From Escherichia phage phiSUSP1, in sequence record KT454805: a stretch of 64,000 bases of DNA, one strand, 5' to 3'. The notes beneath the pieces are model-generated. The model saw nothing but the letters and a program-made list of their open reading frames with translations. It had not been told where the DNA came from and ran no database searches. Numbering within the stretch: the first letter of the stretch is position 1; each line of letters starts with the position of its first letter. Below are positions 28,474 through 56,559 of the stretch, in pieces. Made by a program: the position numbers and the translations under genes.

Positions 28474-29079
<606 letters not shown>

Positions 29080-29149
29080 TTAGTTGATTGTTAAGTTGTT
29101 TGTAAAGAACCCTCAACAGAAGACTCTTTAGAAACTTGGTAGATTTTTA

Positions 29150-29310
29150 ACGTGGCTACTACCATCCACCCACACCAGACCAAACCTAGCCTTACCCCAC
29201 CGCACCTTACCGAACCACACCTTACCATACATCACTTAAAAACCCTCTTAGAAGACTCTTAAGTGATGCTGGTGAGTACCCGTTGGTTTATGCTGCTCAG
29301 TATACTCACC
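29150..29310. repeat. regulatory repeat module copy 2: CA-rich tract + element A + B-like hairpin
   Basis: element A 29230..29265 is a perfect 36-bp copy; 8-bp stem hairpin GGTGAGTA...TACTCACC at 29271..29310; CA-rich tract 29150..29229 shares blocks with 27603..27673. Confidence 0.7.
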
Positions 29311-29322
29311 AAATTTTCTATG

Positions 29323-29511
29323 TCAACAACTTTCTAATAAAGTTTTATAAAGATTTTGCTTAACGACTCGCCTCACATGCCTATGCTCTTTCTTAATAAA
29401 GAGTGACCTCTTCTTGATAGAGCGCCTATTCTTGTAAGTGTTGCTAGGGTACTTATCGTGACCCGGACAACAACTGCCAGGATTTGTAAACTTGATAATC
29501 TCTCTTTTCAC
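29323..29511 (-). CDS. small basic ORF (62 aa), doubtful
   Basis: GTG start overlapping ligase stop by 1 nt; lysine/arginine-rich; may be non-coding leader. Confidence 0.2.
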   Translation of the reverse strand: MKREIIKFTNPGSCCPGHDKYPSNTYKNRRSIKKRSLFIKKEHRHVRRVVKQNLYKTLLESC

Positions 29512-30611
29512 TATTCATAATCCCTAATAACGAGACCAACAGGGAACTGTAAAGACCCCTTACGAGTCATCTTCTGGAACTGAACTGTCAAAGGTTTCCC
29601 GATAAACTCTTCAGGATGTTCAGCAAGATACTGTTTCTTCTCGTGTGTAGTCTTCCATGAAACATCTACAAAGACGTTAGGAAGAGTCTCTACAACGAAC
29701 TTACCATGACCACGCTTATCGGTCTTCACACCAGTAATTTTAAACTCTTCAGTGTGCATCTTCTTGTGCTTAATCAAGAAGTATGAACGGTGACCACACT
29801 CGTAGAAAGATTCTTCAGAGATTGAACGGTACATTGCACCTTCAAACTTAGCTTCAACCCACTTATCATGAGCTTCATCAAACTCTTCCCAAGAATTTAC
29901 ATGGATAGTCTGTACAGGAACAACTCTACAGGTATCCCCAAGCTGAACGAGAGGTGAACTGTCAATAACTTCACGACGCTCAGGCCAAGATTTTGAATTG
30001 TCACAGATATCATACCAGTAGAATTTAAGAAGGTGACGGTCTGGATTGTCAGCATTCTTAATCATAGAGACAATATCTTCTAAGTCCCAACCATGAGCAT
30101 AAATCTCACCATCAAAGTCTTCAACTTGTGGATGTAATTTAAGCAACAAAAGCAAATCTGGGATTAGTTCTGTTGGAACGTTGTAAACAGTATTCTCACG
30201 AGAATAAGCCGTGAAACTAACTGAATCAGCATTCTTTGAAATCCTACAACGGACACCATCAAGTTTTGGTTGAGCATCAGCAGGGAACTTCAGATACTTT
30301 GCATGGCTAACCTTTGCAGCATCATGAGCAAGCTGTACACCAACCTTCTCAACACACTCTGCTTCAGATTTTGTGTAAGCGTAACCTTTACGGTCAACCT
30401 GTTTCTTGTACTTAGCAGCAACTTCAAAGAGAGCTTGCTGTTCAGCATTACGCTCATTCTTTTTACCGATGTTTTTCGGTTCTGCTGTGTACTCTTCAAA
30501 CATCATCTTGCCATTTTCTTTACCGTAAGTTGTGACAACTTTATCACCTACGGCAACACATGACCAGACGTTGAAAGAACCATCTTTATTTTGTTTGTAC
30601 AGGATTGTCAT
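29511..30611 (-). CDS. ATP-dependent DNA ligase
   Basis: adenylation motif KLDGVRC; 366 aa, similar in size to T7 ligase. Confidence 0.8.
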   Translation of the reverse strand: MTILYKQNKDGSFNVWSCVAVGDKVVTTYGKENGKMMFEEYTAEPKNIGKKNERNAEQQALFEVAAKYKKQVDRKGYAYTKSEAECVEKVGVQLAHDAAKVSHAKYLKFPADAQPKLDGVRCRISKNADSVSFTAYSRENTVYNVPTELIPDLLLLLKLHPQVEDFDGEIYAHGWDLEDIVSMIKNADNPDRHLLKFYWYDICDNSKSWPERREVIDSSPLVQLGDTCRVVPVQTIHVNSWEEFDEAHDKWVEAKFEGAMYRSISEESFYECGHRSYFLIKHKKMHTEEFKITGVKTDKRGHGKFVVETLPNVFVDVSWKTTHEKKQYLAEHPEEFIGKPLTVQFQKMTRKGSLQFPVGLVIRDYE

Positions 30612-30796
30612 TACATCTCCTTGCTCTTATCTAAGAATCTTGCACCGCAGCTATTACATTCATATAAACCTAATTTTGTGTTGTCAGGTTTATGAAAGCA
30701 ATTACACCCACATTTGCAAGAGAACTCACCACCAGCTACTGTGATTATGAACGTCTCAATGTTTCCGTCTTCAGTTCTTACAGGTTCTGTTTTCAT
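30611..30796 (-). CDS. small Cys-rich zinc-binding protein (61 aa)
   Basis: CKCGCNC ... CNSC. Confidence 0.35.
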   Translation of the reverse strand: MKTEPVRTEDGNIETFIITVAGGEFSCKCGCNCFHKPDNTKLGLYECNSCGARFLDKSKEM

Positions 30797-30999
30797 TTTC
30801 TCTTACCACCAATTTCTACATCAATAACCTGAACATCACCAGCAACATCAAACTTGTGAATGACATTTTCTACAGTGTAAGTCCAACCTTCAATATGAAC
30901 CCATTCACCTTCTCGTGGTACGATTGGATTACGTTGAGCCACCGTTGTAGTAGAATGAACAACATCATAACGGTAGATATAGTTTACTAAAACTTGCAT
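30793..30999 (-). CDS. hypothetical protein (68 aa)
   Basis: ORF track; overlapping start/stop. Confidence 0.35.
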   Translation of the reverse strand: MQVLVNYIYRYDVVHSTTTVAQRNPIVPREGEWVHIEGWTYTVENVIHKFDVAGDVQVIDVEIGGKRK

Positions 31000-31007
31000 A
31001 ATTTTCC

Positions 31008-31235
31008 TTAAAAGAATAAGTCAGAGGCTTTTGGAGAATCTTGCACAAGACCCCACTCAGATTTCTGCCAATCAAGGCCACGATACCATGAAGCCATCGG
31101 GTAACCCATTTCACAGACAATCTTTCCATCTTTCATTTCAAAGAACTCATCAGATGTGAAGTTCTCATTACGTACTTTCTTACCTTGCTTCATTGCTTCA
31201 ACAGCTTCTTCAAAAGTCATTTTTGGTTTCTCCAA
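31008..31235 (-). CDS. DUF2829-like small protein (possible Tad2-like Thoeris signal sponge)
   Basis: N-terminal motif MTFEEAVEAMKQGKKVR and C-terminal W-rich region recalled as DUF2829 family hallmarks; 70-75 aa. Confidence 0.4.
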   Translation of the reverse strand: MEKPKMTFEEAVEAMKQGKKVRNENFTSDEFFEMKDGKIVCEMGYPMASWYRGLDWQKSEWGLVQDSPKASDLFF

Positions 31236-31238
31236 TAC

Positions 31239-31451
31239 TTAAAAGTTAATGTCGATGCGTTCACCCTTAAGGACTCCAGTGCGGTCTCTTGCAATCTTAC
31301 CGTCAACAATAAGGATATGTGCAGCCCTTAAAGAGTCACGATTAAAACCTTTTACGAACTTACTAGGCATCACTACAATGAGCATCTCCTGAATCAACTC
31401 TGGAGTGTAGCAGTTGTCGTGAAGTTGTTGGATAACGTCTGAAAGTGTCAT
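31239..31451 (-). CDS. hypothetical protein (70 aa)
   Basis: ORF track. Confidence 0.35.
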   Translation of the reverse strand: MTLSDVIQQLHDNCYTPELIQEMLIVVMPSKFVKGFNRDSLRAAHILIVDGKIARDRTGVLKGERIDINF

Positions 31452-31502: not shown

Positions 31503-32030
31503 TCAACTTAGTTTTGCAAACTCTCCGTGAAGTTTCATAGAAGCTTCACAGTAAGCTTTATGGGCTTCTTCAGGGGTGTCATAGTAGCCTAATGACATCT
31601 TTTTACCTTTATAGCTTATTTGCGCAACCCACCTACCAGACTTCTTCTTCAGGCTTACACCCTTATAGCCTGATTTATTGGTGGATAGTTTGCTTTTATT
31701 CCAAGCACTTTGGCAGTCGTCTGCTTCTCTTAAGTTTACAATCCTGTTATCAAGGGAGTCCCCATTACTATGGTCAATAACACCTTTAGGTAACCTACCA
31801 TACACGTACAGCCATGCGAGTCTGTGCGCTTTATGTGCTTTCTTGTCAAAATAGATAGTAATCTGCTTATGACCAGTTGAGTCAATCTGGAGGCTTCCCG
31901 CTACCTGTCCTGCGTACTGGCTATTAAAAACTTTAACAGCCTTTGAGTCGCCCTCTCTACGAAGCCAAGTAAAGACCCCTATTTCGGGGTCATAGTGTAG
32001 TAGTTCCTTTAAACGTTCTTGTGTAATCAT
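31503..32030 (-). CDS. HNH homing endonuclease with AP2 DNA-binding domain
   Basis: HNH region IDHSNGDSLDNRIVNLREA; AP2-like GYKGVS...GRWVAQISYKGKKMSLGYYDTPEEAHKAY; paralogous to ORF 54234..54725. Confidence 0.8.
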   Translation of the reverse strand: MITQERLKELLHYDPEIGVFTWLRREGDSKAVKVFNSQYAGQVAGSLQIDSTGHKQITIYFDKKAHKAHRLAWLYVYGRLPKGVIDHSNGDSLDNRIVNLREADDCQSAWNKSKLSTNKSGYKGVSLKKKSGRWVAQISYKGKKMSLGYYDTPEEAHKAYCEASMKLHGEFAKLS

Positions 32031-32040
32031 TTTGTCACCA

Positions 32041-34740
32041 TTAATGCACTTCCAACCACGATTTACCGACCTTACCAGTACCAGTTACCAGTGTTTTACT
32101 CTTTAGTCCTAAGTTCTTAGAGGCTTGCCCGTAATACCAATCAGTGACAGCCTTCACCTCTGCCGTCATACTTTCTGGACATTCCCAACTTGTCTCATCG
32201 TGATAGGAGCACAATAAACGAGCACCTATAGCTGGTTTACGACCGTTCAACTTCATCAAACCTTCGTCAATCATACGACGGCAAGCAAGGTTAATTGCCT
32301 CGTTCTGAATCTGGCTTTCCGAACCCATGAGCAAGTAGTTCAACAGTTTGTGTGGAGACTTACACCACAACCATGCTCCAGCAACCTTGACAAAACCACC
32401 TTTAGCAATTGCAGCAGTCTTACCAAATACCTCTTCAAGTGCTTTCTTAGTTGCTTTAAAGTCAGCTTCCAAGTCATCTAACAGTTTCTTAATCTTCGGC
32501 AAACGCACAAAGTAAGTCTGTTTAGTCAATGCACCTTCCTGAGTAGTCGCAGCTTTAATCGTCTTAGCAAACTTCTCATCACCAGCACCAAACAGCAACG
32601 CATAGATGCCATTCTTAGCTTTCTTACGACCTTTACTAATTTCGTGAAGAAGATTTTCATCCTGAGTCATACGACAAGTCAAGATGTCTTGTTCTTCGTT
32701 CAAACTGAAGTAGATACTGTTCAGTGTATGAGCATCAGTGCCTGAGTAAACTACGTACAAATCGTTTTCAGAGTCATAACGCAGATACTTATCAACTTCT
32801 GGATTCAGGTATTCGTCAAAGTGTTTGCAGTAATATCTGCCATCTTCCTGACGGATAAACTCAATCTCTTCTTTACCTTGAGTTACCGCTTTGGTGAACT
32901 CTTTGTCACCCATAAAGTTACACAGCAAAACAAGCTGTGCAGAGTTCATGTCAACGGAAACTACGTTGGTTCCTTCTTCACAAATCCAGACTGCCCTCAT
33001 TGGTTCACCGTAAACAGCAGCCCCAGAAGGTACGTTCACAATCCCGTATTGTGTCATACGTCCAGTTGAAGTACCAAACACCATTGCACCAGCACTCAAA
33101 CGACCATCTGGACGAATCTGGTTTAACCAACCCTTTTCATCATCCTTTGAGTTCTCAATAGTCCTGCGTCGGTGCATCAAAGTGTAGTACTTCGCAATCT
33201 TCTGTCCAAGTTCACCTTCAATCGTATCATAAGATGATTCAGTCAGTTTCGGTGAAGTACGAATCAAGCAAGGCTCAAGCAAATCTGTGTACTTCTTCAC
33301 AGACCAGTTGTGTTCGATGTACTGTACACCTTCATGCTCAACATAGTTCAACCCGCAACGGTCTACCATCTCTTGCCATTTCGGATGTTTACGAATCATC
33401 TTCTTGTTGTCTTTGAAGCGACAAACCTTCACCGGACGACCATCAGAATCTTTCTTGTAGTTCCAGTCATCAGGAATCCAGCCAAGAGTTTTCAGATAAT
33501 CCTTCACAACCGCAACCTGAGTCATGCGTGAAACTTCAAACTCAATTGGTGTATAAGGTGCATCAATCAAACCTGTGTAACGACTTGACTCAAGTTCGAA
33601 GTGGTTTACTACGTGATTGTTGTAGTACTTCACAGTCTTCACAGTCTTAACTGGTTTCCAGTCTTTGCACTTCTTATCAATCGCAGCATTCAACTCGTTA
33701 CAAACTGCACGAGCATCTTTCATTGCCACGAAACCTTCTTTGTACTCTTCTCCAGTAACCGTGTTAGTTGGAGTGTAGCAGTTACGCTTCTCAATGTTGA
33801 AAATCTTGGTAGTTGGTTTACCAAAAGGTTTGATAGCGTAAGTCTGCATCTCACCATTACGAACCTGCTGACGGAACTTAGTTTTTGGATACTTAGTGAT
33901 GCGCTTCAGACCATCTGCTTCACCAAATGTCTCAACGTACTCGTTCCAAGCTTTTGCAAACTCTTCACCAGTGACTTTACCTTTCGTCTTAATAGTCGGT
34001 GGCAGATGAGGCTCAACTTCAGCAGCTAATTCATCAGTCATTCTGTCAAGTTCTTTGACATGGAACTGCATAAGTTCAATATCAGCTTTCCAACCGTTGA
34101 TAGCTTGCTGACTCATCCAGAAAGATGTTTCTTTAGCTCGCATGTAGGTTTCGTAAGTGTCTACACCACACTTCTTCAACTTCAGGTATTCATTATCAAG
34201 AGCACGTTTAGCTTTGGCGTTGATTCGAATATCCTCAACAACACGGTTCAGAATGTCAGCATTCCAGACACCCCACTCTTCAATCTCTGGCTTACGAACA
34301 CCAACACGAGCACCCCATGCAGCCAAACCATGAGCACCTTTGTAACCTTTCGGTGTAGGTCTATCCATCCACTGAACACGAGACTGGATAAGAGAATCCT
34401 GAAAGAAGTCTCCCCAAGGTTTACACTTCGGATTATCAAAGTTCCATAAGTCTGGTGCAATGTGGTTAAACACCCACCAGTCATAGCCAAGACCGTTATG
34501 AATGCAGAGACGTTTTGCCTTAAGAGCAAACTCCACACCTTCACGAAGACCACCTTTGATGTACTTAGTACACTTGTGACCAAGGATAGGTTCATCGGTG
34601 AAGACCCACACAGCAGGTTCGTCACTGTCATCTTTGTAATCTGCAAATGCCATTACGTGTGCTTTTGTGAACTCAAGGAGTAACCCATCAGTTTCGGTAT
34701 CACCTACCAAGTGCAAGTTTTCAAAATCTACGTTTTCCAT
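32041..34740 (-). CDS. DNA polymerase, family A (T7 gp5-like) with 3'-5' exonuclease domain
   Basis: Exo I motif VGDTETDGL at N-terminus; 899 aa. Confidence 0.85.
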   Translation of the reverse strand: MENVDFENLHLVGDTETDGLLLEFTKAHVMAFADYKDDSDEPAVWVFTDEPILGHKCTKYIKGGLREGVEFALKAKRLCIHNGLGYDWWVFNHIAPDLWNFDNPKCKPWGDFFQDSLIQSRVQWMDRPTPKGYKGAHGLAAWGARVGVRKPEIEEWGVWNADILNRVVEDIRINAKAKRALDNEYLKLKKCGVDTYETYMRAKETSFWMSQQAINGWKADIELMQFHVKELDRMTDELAAEVEPHLPPTIKTKGKVTGEEFAKAWNEYVETFGEADGLKRITKYPKTKFRQQVRNGEMQTYAIKPFGKPTTKIFNIEKRNCYTPTNTVTGEEYKEGFVAMKDARAVCNELNAAIDKKCKDWKPVKTVKTVKYYNNHVVNHFELESSRYTGLIDAPYTPIEFEVSRMTQVAVVKDYLKTLGWIPDDWNYKKDSDGRPVKVCRFKDNKKMIRKHPKWQEMVDRCGLNYVEHEGVQYIEHNWSVKKYTDLLEPCLIRTSPKLTESSYDTIEGELGQKIAKYYTLMHRRRTIENSKDDEKGWLNQIRPDGRLSAGAMVFGTSTGRMTQYGIVNVPSGAAVYGEPMRAVWICEEGTNVVSVDMNSAQLVLLCNFMGDKEFTKAVTQGKEEIEFIRQEDGRYYCKHFDEYLNPEVDKYLRYDSENDLYVVYSGTDAHTLNSIYFSLNEEQDILTCRMTQDENLLHEISKGRKKAKNGIYALLFGAGDEKFAKTIKAATTQEGALTKQTYFVRLPKIKKLLDDLEADFKATKKALEEVFGKTAAIAKGGFVKVAGAWLWCKSPHKLLNYLLMGSESQIQNEAINLACRRMIDEGLMKLNGRKPAIGARLLCSYHDETSWECPESMTAEVKAVTDWYYGQASKNLGLKSKTLVTGTGKVGKSWLEVH

Positions 34741-40590: not shown

Positions 40591-41643
40591 TTGGAGATAC
40601 AAATGGAAAAGTACACGTTAACAAAACTCCCAGATACTGTGACACATGTCTTTATTGACTCTGACAGTATTGCTTACAAGGGAGCCTGTGTCGTTGAGAA
40701 AGCAAAGTACAAGTATGTGAATAAACTCACTGCTGAAGAGTCTGATGCCTTTGAAAGTGCTAAAGATGCTAATCAATGGCTATCTGACCAGAGAGTTCTG
40801 ACAGAGGAACTTGGTCTTGCATTCGATGAAGATGAATGGGAAAGACAATCTTGGAAAGAAGCTAAGAGTGAAAAAGAAGCTATTATGGCAACTCAACAAG
40901 TTCTTCAGGAATGGTTGAAGGTTGTCGGGAAAGAGCGAACTTGGATGGGCTACCTTACTGAAAAAGGTGTTCACAAGCATAAAGATATCAAAGGTCTTGA
41001 ACATCAGTATCAAGGTAATCGTAAAGACGCAGTAACACCTACGCATTTAGTTGCTTGTCGTGAGTATCTTCTGTCACGACCTGAGTTTAAGCTCTTACTT
41101 AATGGGTTTGAAGCTGACTCCATTGTTATTGCAAAAGCTGAGAAGATGGGTAAGAAGGCTGCTCTTATGAGTATTGATAAAGACCTTCGCCAAGCGGAAG
41201 GAACTTACTGTATTGATATGACTTACGAGAAAGCCCCTCTGATTTTCATTGCAGATGGTAACGTAGGTGATATTTGGGATTGTCCTATCAAGTCTAAGCC
41301 GAAAGCTAAAAAGACTGTTGGTGTAGGCTTCAAATTCCTCTGCTATCAAGCTGTAGCAGGAGATAACGCAGATAACTACTTTGGCCTTAAGGGTGCAGGG
41401 AAAGTTGCTGTAATGAACGCTCTGGAAGGTAAAGAGACCTATAAAGAGTGTCTTGACGCTATCTATGAACTCTACGCTAAGAAAGAGTCATATACTTATG
41501 AATCGTGGGATGGTCAGGTGATTACAAAAACACCTCTTGAATTAATGCACCAGCACTTCTGGATTGCCTATCAAGAACGTAACCCTAAAGACGATTTCAC
41601 CTTTGCTAAATATGGTTGGGAGCCTGTTATGAATGAAGATTAA
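40591..41643 (+). CDS. 5'-3' exonuclease / flap endonuclease (FEN family)
   Basis: H3TH-like motif AVAGDNADNYFGLKGAGKVA; acidic clusters FIDSDSIA and IDKD. Confidence 0.65.
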   Translation: MEIQMEKYTLTKLPDTVTHVFIDSDSIAYKGACVVEKAKYKYVNKLTAEESDAFESAKDANQWLSDQRVLTEELGLAFDEDEWERQSWKEAKSEKEAIMATQQVLQEWLKVVGKERTWMGYLTEKGVHKHKDIKGLEHQYQGNRKDAVTPTHLVACREYLLSRPEFKLLLNGFEADSIVIAKAEKMGKKAALMSIDKDLRQAEGTYCIDMTYEKAPLIFIADGNVGDIWDCPIKSKPKAKKTVGVGFKFLCYQAVAGDNADNYFGLKGAGKVAVMNALEGKETYKECLDAIYELYAKKESYTYESWDGQVITKTPLELMHQHFWIAYQERNPKDDFTFAKYGWEPVMNED

Positions 41644-42133
41644 AGGTTTTGGCAATTGCCCTGAATATGGACATTGGATTTCACTGTGCGGGGAGATTGA
41701 CCCCGCTAAGTATTTTGGTTTCGTTTACTTAGTGTACTGCAAAAAGACTGGACAGTATTACATCGGTAAGAAGCAGTTTAACAATGTCACCAAGAAGAAA
41801 GTAGCTGGAAAGACCAGACGTAAGATTGTGACAAAAGAGAGTGACTGGATGGTTTACCAGACCTCTTCTGAGTACATTAAGAAAGATATTGAAACTTTCG
41901 GTGAAAAAGAGTTTGACTTCTATATTGTGCAAACTTATTATACGCGAGGTGGGTTGGTCTACGGAGAAGCTAACCTTCAACATAAGTTTGACGTCATGAC
42001 AAAAAGGATTGACTCCAAGCTTCGACTCTTCTACAATGCAAACATTGCAGCAATCAAGTTTCTTACTAAAGAGACTTATGAAGATGCTGAGAAGAGAATC
42101 CATAAAATCATGAAACTTAATGAGAGAGAATAA
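41633..42133 (+). CDS. GIY-YIG nuclease domain protein
   Basis: GFVYLVYCKKTGQYYIGKK matches the GIY..YIG signature; 166 aa. Confidence 0.45.
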   Translation: MKIKGFGNCPEYGHWISLCGEIDPAKYFGFVYLVYCKKTGQYYIGKKQFNNVTKKKVAGKTRRKIVTKESDWMVYQTSSEYIKKDIETFGEKEFDFYIVQTYYTRGGLVYGEANLQHKFDVMTKRIDSKLRLFYNANIAAIKFLTKETYEDAEKRIHKIMKLNERE

Positions 42134-42347
42134 GATTATGTTTAACAAACTGAAGAATGACCACGTAGCTAAAATTGACAGCCACATTGCAGCACTGAAA
42201 GATGCAATCATCAAAGCTAAAGAAGCTACGGAGTCCGAAATGGAGGCTCTTGAGTCCCAGATTCAGCACCTGATTAACAAGCGTGTTGAACTGAAAGGCC
42301 GACTGGATTATATTGAGTCTCAGCAGAAACTGTTTCAGGAGGTTTAA
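42120..42347 (+). CDS. small coiled-coil protein (75 aa)
   Basis: ORF track; heptad-like helical sequence. Confidence 0.35.
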   Translation: MRENKIMFNKLKNDHVAKIDSHIAALKDAIIKAKEATESEMEALESQIQHLINKRVELKGRLDYIESQQKLFQEV

Positions 42348-43102
42348 TGTTTAATTCCAGAGAATCCGTTTTAACTTGGAACCAGCGTTGTGGTAAAACC
42401 CCGTTGACTCCGTATACACCTGAGTACTGGTCTTCGATGCGTAGTCAAGCACTTTGCATGTTAGAAGAAGCCAAAGAGCTTTTGAAAGCTGTTGATGAAA
42501 AAGACCCTATCGAGGCTCTTGATGCTCAGGCAGACTTACAGTATGTTCTTGATGGACTGATTTACCTTTCACAGCATGACCATGACGGAGCTATGAAAGC
42601 AGTCTGTGAGAATAACAACCTGAAGTATACCGATAACTACGAAGAAGCTTTGAAGCGTCTTGCAGATATCGAGAAACGTACTGGTGATGAATGTCGTGTA
42701 CGTGCTTCAATGATTGACGGCAAAGAGTGGTACGCCATTATCCGTGAGTCTGATAAGAAGGTTATGAAGCAATCTAATCTTCCTAAAGTACAGCTTGCAG
42801 AGTTCATCGCGGAACTTGAAAGCAGAGAATTGTTCGTGGTAACATCTGACACATGCGTTATCTGTAAAGGTCTTGTAGGAAGTTTGAAAGACCTTGGATT
42901 GAGTGACTTCACAGAAGTTCGACCAATCAGTTCGAAAGCAGACAAAGACTTCTGCCGAGAAAACGGATTATGGCTTGCAGATATTGTTTACTATGACGGT
43001 GAGAAGTTCCATGTGACCTCATACCCGAAACTGAACTATGATGCAAATAACCTTAAGAATTGGTTAAAAGGGGTTGGTTATAATGGATTCACAGAACATT
43101 AA
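42347..43102 (+). CDS. MazG-like NTP pyrophosphohydrolase domain protein with C-terminal CxxC region
   Basis: N-terminal EExxEL-type helical region (LEEAKELLKAV, EALDAQADLQYVLDGL); C-terminal CVIC motif. Confidence 0.4.
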   Translation: MFNSRESVLTWNQRCGKTPLTPYTPEYWSSMRSQALCMLEEAKELLKAVDEKDPIEALDAQADLQYVLDGLIYLSQHDHDGAMKAVCENNNLKYTDNYEEALKRLADIEKRTGDECRVRASMIDGKEWYAIIRESDKKVMKQSNLPKVQLAEFIAELESRELFVVTSDTCVICKGLVGSLKDLGLSDFTEVRPISSKADKDFCRENGLWLADIVYYDGEKFHVTSYPKLNYDANNLKNWLKGVGYNGFTEH

Positions 43103-53062: not shown

Positions 53063-53333
53063 AGAACAATGGGAAATCAAAGAACTCATTAGTGAAGCTG
53101 GAAATGGTAGTGAGATGTATATGATACGTGGTCACGTCCCAGATGCACTTGCTATTGAAATGATTGACCACTACTCCAACGGATTCTATAAAGAATTTGG
53201 AGAGCCAAATATTGAACGTACTTGGACAAAACCAGTACCAGATGGAACAGGGAACTGTTCAGTTATCTATCACATTGTAGACCCAAAGAAATGTAAGTCA
53301 GCTATGGCTGTAACATTTGTAACTTTTGACTGA
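53055..53333 (+). CDS. hypothetical protein (about 92 aa)
   Basis: in-frame ATG at 53055 within ORF 53028..53333. Confidence 0.3.
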   Translation: MAREQWEIKELISEAGNGSEMYMIRGHVPDALAIEMIDHYSNGFYKEFGEPNIERTWTKPVPDGTGNCSVIYHIVDPKKCKSAMAVTFVTFD

Positions 53334-53343
53334 GAGAAATATT

Positions 53344-54225
53344 ATGAAAACTATTATTCAAGTCCTGATTAATTCAAACTCTAAAGGCACTCACCAAGAG
53401 AACTTCAACATTATCCAGTTCCCTTCAGGAGAAATTGGTGGTAACTTCTCAGAAGATTTGGTAGACTTTGTTGAACATGCTGCTGGTAAGATTGATAACG
53501 TAATCTTCACGGTACAAGGCTATGATAAAGATACACTCTTTGCATTAGCTCTGGCTAAAGAAGCAATTGACCGTATGATTCCTCAGAAAGCAGCTATGAA
53601 GACTGTTGTCTTTGGTTTCTTACCAAATGCTAGATATGACCGTCACATGTTTAAAGGTGATGCAGCAGCACTTAAAGCATTTGCAAATCTTGTAAACGCT
53701 ATGGAGTTTGATGCAATTTGTGCTCTGGATGCTCATAGTAACGTGGCAGAGAATCTATTTAAGTGCTTCTACAACCTACCTCAAAAAGAGGCAGCAGTAC
53801 ACTTTGCAAGTGACCCACGAATTGATTACTTAGTGGCTCCAGATGCAGGTGCAGCTAAGAAGACTGAAGAAGCTGCTAAGGATGTTGAGAAGCCTTATAT
53901 CACAATGGCTAAGGTGCGTAACCTGAAAACTGGTGAAATCACTGGTATGCGAATCCTTGATGACGTAGATTTAACAGGCAAGACTGTCATGATTCTGGAT
54001 GATATCTGTGACGGTGGTCGTACCTTCATTGAGGCTGCAAAGTATCTTCGTGAAGCTGGTGCAGAACGTGTAGAACTGTATGTCACTCATGGGATTTTCT
54101 CTAAAGGTGTTGAAAATCTTCTTGACAACGGTATTGACCATATCTACACTACAAACTCACTAGGCGATGTAGAAGACCGTGGACTTTCACACTTCTCACA
54201 AGTGACTGTAGCAAACATTGAATAG
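53344..54225 (+). CDS. ribose-phosphate pyrophosphokinase family protein (Prs-like; possible ADPR-PP synthetase)
   Basis: Prs blocks ALDAHS, YLVAPDAGAAKK and PRTase loop VMILDDICDGGRT...YVTHGIFS; ORF track start 53326 is TTG, ATG at 53344 more likely. Confidence 0.65.
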   Translation: MKTIIQVLINSNSKGTHQENFNIIQFPSGEIGGNFSEDLVDFVEHAAGKIDNVIFTVQGYDKDTLFALALAKEAIDRMIPQKAAMKTVVFGFLPNARYDRHMFKGDAAALKAFANLVNAMEFDAICALDAHSNVAENLFKCFYNLPQKEAAVHFASDPRIDYLVAPDAGAAKKTEEAAKDVEKPYITMAKVRNLKTGEITGMRILDDVDLTGKTVMILDDICDGGRTFIEAAKYLREAGAERVELYVTHGIFSKGVENLLDNGIDHIYTTNSLGDVEDRGLSHFSQVTVANIE

Positions 54226-54741: not shown

Positions 54742-56559
54742 ATGAGTAAATCACTTTACGCAGTACCAGCAGGTCTTAATGCAGATGCTTACAAGTCATC
54801 ACACATCTACCAGTATCCAGATGCTACTCAGTATCTTATGCTGAATTTAACGCCTCGTGGAGACAAATGGTTTAACTCTCCATTAGAAATTGATGGTGTT
54901 GTAGCATTTGGTATTCAGCGTTTTGTAAAAGACTATCTGGTAGACCACTGGAATGCAACGTTCTTTGAACGTGATAAGAAAGAAGCCATTGACGAAATCT
55001 TGGAAATCATGAATGGTGTACTTGGTGCAGATGCCATTGGTCGTCAACATTGGGAAGAACTTCATGACTTAGGTTATCTGCCTGTTGAAGTCTACTCTGT
55101 AGAGGAAGGTACAATTGTCCCTATGCGTGTCCCGATGATTATATTCAAAAACACTGTAGAGGGCTTCCATTGGGTAGCTGGTTATCTCGAAGATGCTTTC
55201 TCTGCTGAAATCTGGAAAGCTTGTACAATTGCAACTATTGCACTACATTACAAACGTATTTGTAAGAAGTGGTCAGATTTGACCTGTGATAACGACTTCC
55301 ATCTTCCTTGGCAGTGTCATGACTTTGCAATGCGTGGTATGTCTGGATTCACAGATGATGCGTTTAACGCAGTAGGTCACCTGACAAGTTTTAAAGGTAC
55401 TGACAGCTTCCCTGCTGTATACACAGCTAAACGTGCATATGGTCAGTTTATGACTGTAAGTGATATCGGGAACTCTGTACCAGCAACTGAACACTCTGTG
55501 ATGTGTGCAAACATCTCATGGAATAGTTGTGCCAAAGAAGTAAGTGATTGGCATCTGCTACAGTCTGACAACTTGTTAGATGCAATGCGTTGGCGTGGTG
55601 AGGTAGAAACTTTCCAACGTCTTCTGACAGAAGTCTACCCAACTGGTATTGCAAGTGTTGTATCAGATACTTACAACTTCTGGAGAACTGTTACACAGAT
55701 TTTACCAGAGCTACGTAATGTGATTCTGAATCGTGATGGTAAGTTGGTAATCCGTCCAGACTCTGGAGACCCTGTTCACATTGTCACTGGTTACAAAGTC
55801 ATTGAATGGGAAACTGCTAAGTCAATGTTCTATAAGCACATGAAAGGTCTTGCACCAGATAACACCCACCTGCATGATGCAATCTTGAATTGTGAAATGG
55901 CTGATATTGGCTTTGGATTATCTGCTTGGCTAATCTCTGAAGGTTATGAGATGGTTGTTGAAAATGAAGATTTTGATTATATTGATACAATCAACCTGAT
56001 TACTGCTCAGAAAACTGGACAGTTTACTGTGAAGCGTATGTTAACAGCAGAAATTGATGGAGCTATCCACACGCTGTATAACATCTTTGGTGGTACTGTT
56101 AACTCCAAAGGGTACAAAGTACTGGATGAGCACATTGGACTAATCTACGGTGATTCTATCACTTTGGAAAGGGCTAATGAGATTCTATCACGTCTTGCTG
56201 ATAAAGGTTTTGCAAGTTCTAACGTAGTGTTTGGTGTAGGTTCATACACCTATCAGTACCTGACTCGTGATACCTTTGCATTTGCTGTTAAAGCAACTCT
56301 TGCACAGATGGACGGTCAAGAAATCATGCTGGCTAAAGACCCTAAAACAGATAGTGGTCTGAAGAAATCTGCTTTTGGTGGAGTCATCCCTATGTGGGAC
56401 GGTGATAAGCTGGAAGCTGTAGATGGTTTTGGTTTTGCAGAGTTTGAAGGTGCAATTGAGAATTGTCAGAGCGCTTTGAAACTGGTATTTAGCAACTCAC
56501 AACCTTATGGTTATGTTAATCTACGTGATGTACGAAATACTATTGACAAGCAACTTTAA
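54742..56559 (+). CDS. nicotinamide phosphoribosyltransferase family protein (Nampt/NadV-like)
   Basis: blocks match Nampt from memory: DAYKSSHIYQYP, HDFAMRGMSGFTDDAFNAVGHLTSFKGTDS, VPATEHS, VVSDTYNFW, LVIRPDSGDPV. Confidence 0.8.
   Translation: MSKSLYAVPAGLNADAYKSSHIYQYPDATQYLMLNLTPRGDKWFNSPLEIDGVVAFGIQRFVKDYLVDHWNATFFERDKKEAIDEILEIMNGVLGADAIGRQHWEELHDLGYLPVEVYSVEEGTIVPMRVPMIIFKNTVEGFHWVAGYLEDAFSAEIWKACTIATIALHYKRICKKWSDLTCDNDFHLPWQCHDFAMRGMSGFTDDAFNAVGHLTSFKGTDSFPAVYTAKRAYGQFMTVSDIGNSVPATEHSVMCANISWNSCAKEVSDWHLLQSDNLLDAMRWRGEVETFQRLLTEVYPTGIASVVSDTYNFWRTVTQILPELRNVILNRDGKLVIRPDSGDPVHIVTGYKVIEWETAKSMFYKHMKGLAPDNTHLHDAILNCEMADIGFGLSAWLISEGYEMVVENEDFDYIDTINLITAQKTGQFTVKRMLTAEIDGAIHTLYNIFGGTVNSKGYKVLDEHIGLIYGDSITLERANEILSRLADKGFASSNVVFGVGSYTYQYLTRDTFAFAVKATLAQMDGQEIMLAKDPKTDSGLKKSAFGGVIPMWDGDKLEAVDGFGFAEFEGAIENCQSALKLVFSNSQPYGYVNLRDVRNTIDKQL

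Follow-up and report, generated by a model that had tools for sequence, protein, structure and literature searches.

Among the known families of phage sponge proteins, Tad2 is the most widespread, and its members have already diversified towards several immune signals. In canonical Tad2 proteins the loop between strands beta1 and beta2 carries the W25-N26 dyad, which provides ligand stacking and diphosphate binding, and the C-terminal W73 together with the S76-x-T78-D79 motif contributes contacts to ribose hydroxyls and water. As a reference for numbering we used the SPO1-type Tad2 from phage SP8, in which the relevant residues agree with the published W25, N26, I63, T65, D67, H71, W73, S76, T78 and D79 (10.1101/2023.05.01.538930). 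In SPO1 Tad2 (gp34.65; PDB 8SME, 8SMF and 8SMG; PF11195) an insertion between strands beta2 and beta3 (residues 36-59) carries helix alpha2, through which two protomers pack together as the V-shaped dimer that makes up the tetramer, and the pocket-forming interface runs along helix alpha1 (10.1101/2023.05.01.538930). HgmTad2 (also described as AcrIIA7; PDB 8KBI-8KBM) binds gcADPR as well as cyclic dinucleotides, the latter in a pocket formed by a long insertion (residues 32-72); its gcADPR binding is abolished by W21A/N22A or by S90A/T92A/D93A, and approx. 99% of Tad2 proteins retain this site (10.1101/2023.11.15.567273). ModTad2 from a Myroides odoratus prophage (PDB 9EIB and 8V3E) sequesters His-ADPR (type II Thoeris) as well as cUMP/cCMP (Pycsar), with a second (cUMP) pocket at the Tad2A-Tad2C interface (PMC12393519), i.e., at the interface where the HgmTad2 insertion binds cyclic dinucleotides (10.1101/2023.11.15.567273). 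Documented Tad2 ligands thus include 3'cADPR, His-ADPR, N7-cADPR, cUMP/cCMP and cyclic dinucleotides (PMC12393519; 10.1101/2023.11.15.567273), and a recent survey comprised 2,783 Tad2 homologs, of which 18 were tested (PMC12393519).

The window analyzed here, a stretch of 64,000 nucleotides from Escherichia phage phiSUSP1 (KT454805), encodes a 70-aa protein that is an insertion-less, pocket-divergent variant of the Tad2 fold and not a canonical Tad2. Like this protein, the sponges Tad1, Acb2, Acb4, Sequestin, Lockin and TadIV-1 are short (<100 aa) accessory phage proteins encoded in variable islets, and they are typically oligomeric (10.1101/2025.07.12.664507; PMC13243611), but their folds are unrelated to that of the subfamily described here. 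TadIV-1 (T4 vs.3) was considered as an identity and rejected, as it is helical and occurs only in Straboviridae (PMC13243611). We also rejected an anti-CRISPR role of the AcrIIA7 type, since that activity failed to reproduce (10.1101/2023.11.15.567273).

The gene, its product and the predicted fold

The ORF list places the reading frame at 31008..31235 on the minus strand, where translation from a TTG start gives 75 aa including MTFEEAVEAMKQGKKVRNENF. The initial annotation had described an ORF of this extent with a product of 70-75 aa, a characteristic N-terminal sequence and a Trp-rich C-terminal part, and all of these features were confirmed; the C-terminal half carries three Trp residues (W45, W51 and W56). 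The ATG at 31220 is likely to be the true start, rather than the upstream TTG (31235), because a GGAG motif is located 9 nt upstream of it and because the annotation of the SUSP2 ortholog (gp044) starts at this ATG as well. The resulting 70-aa product, MTFEEAVEAMKQGKKVRNENFTSDEFFEMKDGKIVCEMGYPMASWYRGLDWQKSEWGLVQDSPKASDLFF, is acidic (pI 4.7) and identical to the phiSUSP1 hypothetical protein YP_009199433.1. Its last ten residues are found in the closest (Suspvirus-type) relatives, and most family members do not have them (41-96% gaps in the corresponding alignment columns). The ORF is a genuine gene rather than a chance reading frame, since it is conserved at the protein level in 452 phage records and 217 representative clusters.

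Table 1. Positions in the window of the Tad2-fold gene, its parts and the genes and intervals discussed with it
Feature	Position	Strand	Remarks
Minimal Tad2-fold CDS, 70 aa	31008..31220	minus	ATG 31220-31218, stop 31010-31008; from ORF list
Folded DUF2829/Tad2 core, residues 1-60	31041..31220	minus	
Disordered tail, residues 61-70 (DSPKASDLFF)	31011..31040	minus	pLDDT about 52
18-nt spacer from stop of upstream gene to ATG	31221..31238	minus	GGAG Shine-Dalgarno at 31230-31233; read from sequence
Variable islet of four small ORFs (61, 68, 70 and 70 aa)	30611..31451	minus	between DNA ligase and HNH endonuclease/DNA polymerase; from ORF list
61-aa ORF of the islet	30611-30796	minus	
DNA ligase	29511-30611		islet flank
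HNH-AP2 endonuclease and DNA polymerase	31503-34740		other islet flank
HNH_3 and AP2-domain homing endonuclease	31503-32030	minus	between DNA polymerase gene and islet
Gene-free gap	29077-29510		between DNA ligase and next minus-strand gene
Prs-like gene	53326-54225	plus	Pribosyltran/Pribosyl_synth Pfam domains
Nampt-like gene	54742-56559	plus	NAMPT_N/NAPRTase Pfam domains

At the sequence level, the only Pfam family matching the 70-aa protein was PF11195 (Tad2-like, formerly DUF2829), with residues 1-36 aligned to positions 1-32 of the 73-position profile; at 24.5 bits (E 4e-5) this match, which covers the N-terminal half only, is a borderline miss, 0.5 bit under the gathering cut-off of 25 bits. 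Individually, 25 of 85 subfamily members matched PF11195 at E<=0.01 and none showed a rival family. The actual sequence family is PHROG 3474, matched over the full length of the profile (residues 1-60 against positions 4-63 of 64; 107.9 bits, E 3.2e-31); this family and the related PHROGs 22208 and 6670 are without assigned function, and we connect PHROG 3474 with the Tad2 fold by comparing structures and profiles. A search of the 70-aa protein against NCBIfam gave no match, and a PADLOC match to typeIV_Cas8 (E 0.019) was dismissed as meaningless. In PDB sequence searches (both single-sequence and profile) the top matches were LIM-domain fusions (E 0.014-0.14), which we rejected as chance because they involve a single 24-residue stretch (DEFFxMxDGxIVC) and the protein lacks the zinc ligands of a LIM domain; chains of Tad2 ranked below them, with E values of 0.4-0.9 over residues 1-27 only. 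As sequence alone was insufficient for a link to Tad2, a comparison of folds was needed.

A structure prediction, which the initial annotation had proposed as a check, yielded the Tad2 fold, with pLDDT values of 88-94 across residues 1-60 in the monomer model (helix 3-11, strands 15-18, 27-30 and 33-36, short helix 50-53 and strand 56-59). As modelled, the protein is a bare Tad2/DUF2829 core of approx. 60 residues that comprises the N-terminal helix (alpha1), a four-stranded antiparallel sheet, a short helix (alpha3) and the C-terminal Trp strand. All top matches of the structural search were solved Tad2 proteins (for SPO1 Tad2, Foldseek probability 0.99 and TM about 0.6). Moreover, an hhalign comparison of the 85-sequence subfamily with 113 canonical Tad2 sequences gave a local probability of 93.9% (E 1.6e-7) over residues 1-35 and, in global mode, P 1e-5 over 59 columns, co-linear through to the C-terminal Trp strand. 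Within the window, the Tad2-fold ORF was the sole match both of an HMM built from canonical Tad2 and of the subfamily HMM. The earlier designation as DUF2829-like therefore holds with regard to the sole family match, the profile alignment and the top-ranking folds, although the Pfam cut-off itself was narrowly missed. Matches in BFVD also showed that Lactobacillus phages Iacchus, Semele and LP65 encode several paralogous proteins (117-242 aa), each with a Tad2-type fold, which suggests a lineage-specific expansion of this domain in these phages.

Insertion and pocket compared with canonical Tad2

The phiSUSP1 protein and SPO1 Tad2 are both small, acidic phage proteins, and they share, besides the N-terminal helix, the antiparallel sheet and the short helix followed by the C-terminal Trp strand, an N-terminal M-x-F-x-E-A-x-x-A-(M/L)-K-x-G-K-K-V motif and a terminal (D/G)-W-x-I-V motif. 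On the other hand, SPO1 Tad2 has 89 aa as compared to 70 aa (60 of them structured) in the phiSUSP1 protein, and the insertion of approx. 25 residues between beta2 and beta3, including helix alpha2, is absent; strands 27-30 and 33-36 are instead joined by the two-residue turn D31-G32. A two-residue D-G turn replaces the canonical insertion across the subfamily, the median length of which is 65 aa as compared to 90 aa for canonical Tad2. Accordingly, 30 of the 86 residues of ModTad2 have no counterpart in the phiSUSP1 protein, which also has no equivalent of the HgmTad2 insertion that binds cyclic dinucleotides at the interface where the cUMP pocket of ModTad2 lies.

The ligand-binding residues differ as well. 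Among 114 canonical Tad2 sequences, W25, N26, W73 and D79 are each 100% conserved, and S76 and T65 are conserved in 96% and 91%, respectively. The W25-N26 dyad, which lies in the confidently aligned region, corresponds to F21-T22 in the phiSUSP1 protein; across the subfamily, position 21 is F in 91%, Y in 5% and W in 1% of sequences, and position 22 is T in 51% and S in 16%, with N outside the five commonest residues. Equivalences in the C-terminal half rest on a low-confidence profile alignment and on co-linearity; in this global alignment W45 falls on W73, D50 on D79, and G48 and L49 on S76 and T78, so that S76-x-T78-D79 is replaced by G48-L49-D50. Within the subfamily only 32% of sequences keep W45 and 25% keep D50, which are thus not maintained by selection. 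Of the residues essential for gcADPR binding in HgmTad2, W21/N22 are likewise not retained, and S90/T92/D93 appear not to be.

The subfamily does, however, have a conserved set of its own (H18, F21, E25, E37, G39, Y40, an aromatic residue at 45/46, and W56), in which H18, E25, E37 and G39-Y40 set it apart from SPO1 Tad2; the phiSUSP1 protein itself has N at position 18. A6, G13, F21, E25, E37 and W56 are near-invariant in the 85-sequence alignment, which represents one coherent family. By co-linearity, this set with the exception of W56 maps to the loops lining the Tad2 pocket (beta1-beta2 and beta3-beta4), with E37 on T65 and G39 on D67. From these alignments we infer that selection acts on the same face as in Tad2, with altered chemistry.

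Distribution and genomic setting

An exhaustive profile search retrieved 217 representative clusters (E<=1e-3), most of them with proteins of 60-75 aa, and tblastn located the subfamily in 452 phage records, led by phages of Klebsiella (169), Escherichia (108) and Salmonella (74); among the copies listed, all are annotated as hypothetical or mis-labelled. Canonical Tad2 was found in 416 records with a taxonomic spread unlike that of the subfamily, which occurs mostly in virulent enterobacterial phages, including Ounavirinae, T5-like phages, T4-like Klebsiella phages, Vequintavirinae and Stephanstirmvirinae. Similarity at the protein level persists in phage groups without detectable DNA similarity. 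Among the papers searched, none describes the short subfamily or tests one of its members.

The 4 kb around the gene are 94% identical to phage SUSP2 (Ounavirinae, Suspvirus). The flanking 4 kb match 259 records, and the gene itself matches only 42, mainly of the Suspvirus and Mooglevirus types. The ligase-HNH interval of phages HY02, dune and SapYZU01 holds 2, 4 and 8 different small genes, respectively, none of which matches the subfamily HMM. The gene is thus accessory within Ounavirinae and located in a hypervariable islet. The initial annotation had placed it among small genes next to the replication block, which is correct given the polymerase and ligase genes on the two sides of the islet (Table 1); it is the third of the tightly packed ORFs counted from the ligase side. 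The other three islet ORFs (61, 68 and 70 aa) showed no confident Pfam match and no informative family, and they may represent further accessory or anti-defence candidates. The 61-aa ORF has two Cys pairs (CKCGCNC ... CNSCG) and resembles a small zinc ribbon; its sole Pfam match, DUF7129, is weak (E 0.008, below the cut-off). A homing endonuclease with HNH_3 and AP2 domains borders the DNA polymerase gene on one side and the islet on the other, and a mobile element at this place could help account for local gene turnover.

A scan of the region for promoters and terminators gave results at the level of shuffled sequences, with no promoter-like site above background near the gene; co-transcription with the polymerase-ligase block is therefore the arrangement we infer, and early expression of the Tad2-fold gene is plausible. 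The best sigma-70-like match of the region (TTGACA-16-TATACT; minus strand, 29326-29299) lies inside the gene-free gap beyond the DNA ligase gene. This gap also contains short tandem repeats (29190-29226, with a 15-nt unit repeated 2.5 times; 29082-29107; and 29337-29356) and may be a regulatory region.

The T5 left terminal repeat is the pre-early, first-injected (first-step-transfer) region that serves host takeover. In T5-like Epseptimavirus phages, homologs of the phiSUSP1 protein lie beside A1/A2 within the left terminal repeat as annotated (MF431736.1, 7432-7629; MF001363.1, 1477-1677). In phage PaulScherrer (Bas60) the domain forms the N-terminus of the 183-aa protein bas60_0105, which is encoded at the head of an operon adjoining a long run of small unknown genes. 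Other longer relatives (110-350 aa, with the length of approx. 350 aa reached in metagenomes) similarly combine the same N-terminal domain with unrelated C-terminal parts. Among 49 such proteins, two had SEC-C tails; the C-terminal parts otherwise showed no Pfam match, and neither Acb4, Sequestin nor any other known sponge domain occurred as a fusion partner. In further proteins of the subfamily (117-175 aa) two copies of the domain stand in tandem, possibly as a single-chain counterpart of a dimer.

Candidate functions and NAD counter-defence

As the best explanation, which we put forward tentatively, the phiSUSP1 protein would serve in counter-defence as a minimal Tad2 fold, with a small molecule from the host bound at the site corresponding to the Tad2 pocket. 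This reading draws on the fold, on the constraint on the pocket-equivalent loops, on the accessory and pre-early distribution of the family and on the plastic specificity of Tad2 proteins. Like other Tad2-fold proteins, the candidate would act as a small homo-oligomeric binder, and it would sequester its ligand, probably a nucleotide immune signal, through loops that, according to the profile alignment, carry F21, T22, E25, E37, G39-Y40 and the aromatic residue at 45/46. The Tad2-type tetramer may not form, since helix alpha2, the element that builds the V-shaped dimer, is missing. As the pocket chemistry differs, the ligand is probably not 3'cADPR or gcADPR bound in the canonical manner. A more specific version of the binder reading, which appears possible but on balance unlikely, is that the subfamily constitutes insertion-less "mini-Tad2" sponges, with a pocket re-tooled through F21, T22, E25, E37 and G39-Y40, that sequester an immune signal other than 3'cADPR via a simpler assembly. 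If this were true, the assembly could be, e.g., an alpha1-mediated dimer, the signal might be one without an assigned sponge in enterobacteria, and virulent phages of Escherichia, Klebsiella and Salmonella, numbering in the hundreds, would deploy the protein, T5-like phages among their very first injected genes.

Several observations speak against a binder. Two of the best-conserved residues are glutamates (E25 and E37), whereas the pockets of known sponges are positively charged (10.1101/2025.07.12.664507), and in a protein of 60 residues the conservation of aromatic and acidic positions may serve only the stability of the fold. The absence, among the 49 longer relatives, of any fusion partner linking the family to other sponges also counts against a sponge. 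Under a rival explanation, which is possible but on balance unlikely, the Tad2-fold domain has a role other than sequestration, e.g., as a small protein-binding inhibitor, a host-takeover factor or a generic N-terminal adaptor module. The conserved glutamates would suit an anionic nucleotide ligand poorly, the protein is acidic as are many protein or DNA mimics, the domain occurs as the N-terminus of relatives of 110-350 aa with unrelated C-terminal parts (e.g., bas60_0105), and the T5-like pre-early region encodes general host-takeover functions that go beyond anti-defence. However, all characterised Tad2-fold proteins are small-molecule sponges, the one claimed exception, the anti-CRISPR AcrIIA7, being irreproducible (10.1101/2023.11.15.567273), and conservation is concentrated in the loops lining the Tad2 pocket.

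The initial annotation had raised the possibility of a Tad2-like Thoeris signal sponge. On this reading the protein would be a functional Tad2 that sequesters the type I Thoeris signal (3'cADPR/gcADPR) in a canonical pocket and thereby blocks ThsA activation. In this form the proposal was not supported, and we consider it improbable because the defining W-N dyad is absent. The predicted fold is that of Tad2, helix alpha1, along which the SPO1 pocket interface runs, is retained (10.1101/2023.05.01.538930), and the global profile alignment sets W45 on W73, D50 on D79 and the aromatic F21 on W25. Nevertheless, two residues invariant in all 114 canonical sequences are replaced by F (W in 1%) and by T/S in the subfamily, mutation of the equivalent dyad or of the C-terminal motif kills gcADPR binding in HgmTad2 (10.1101/2023.11.15.567273), this motif is aligned with G-L-D in the phiSUSP1 protein, W45 and D50 are poorly conserved, and the dimer-forming insertion is missing. 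Finally, a decaying or non-functional Tad2 remnant or a spurious ORF, as might be suspected from a protein that has fewer residues than canonical Tad2, misses the Pfam threshold and is "hypothetical" in all annotations, is in effect refuted by conservation across the family (hundreds of homologs, diverged but uniform in length, share a specific motif, and protein similarity is retained where DNA similarity is undetectable), and the confidently modelled fold, the proper ribosome binding site and the tight operon spacing also make it scarcely credible.

Under the preferred reading of a small-molecule binder, a core-only version of approx. 60 residues with a different pocket, common in enterobacterial phages of the therapeutic type, would define a minimal sponge scaffold and could point to a signal or defence system relevant in Enterobacteriaceae. 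Conversely, if the protein is not a sponge, the "Tad2-like" label that is spreading through databases over-predicts anti-Thoeris function. The short insertion-less subfamily is a directly testable lead, albeit one that will not surprise specialists.

It had further been argued that the sponge, together with a Prs/Nampt pair, would give the phage two independent answers to NAD-depleting immunity. The pair is present (Table 1), and the annotation of SUSP2 also supports it; it corresponds to the NARP1 NAD+-reconstitution operon (Adps and Namat), a counter-defence that had already been described. NARP1 was first shown experimentally in the related Felixounavirus Bas63 and is sufficient on its own to overcome systems that deplete NAD, among them type I Thoeris (10.1101/2024.02.11.579819). 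The argument for two answers therefore reduces to one known system (NARP1) and one putative sponge. In SUSP2 (NC_028935.2), the closest annotated relative, a plus-strand metabolic module additionally includes genes annotated as a small "NAD synthetase" (41623-42123) and a MazG-like pyrophosphatase (42337-43092), at coordinates that carry over roughly to the window; these genes may be relevant to nucleotide or NAD counter-defence.
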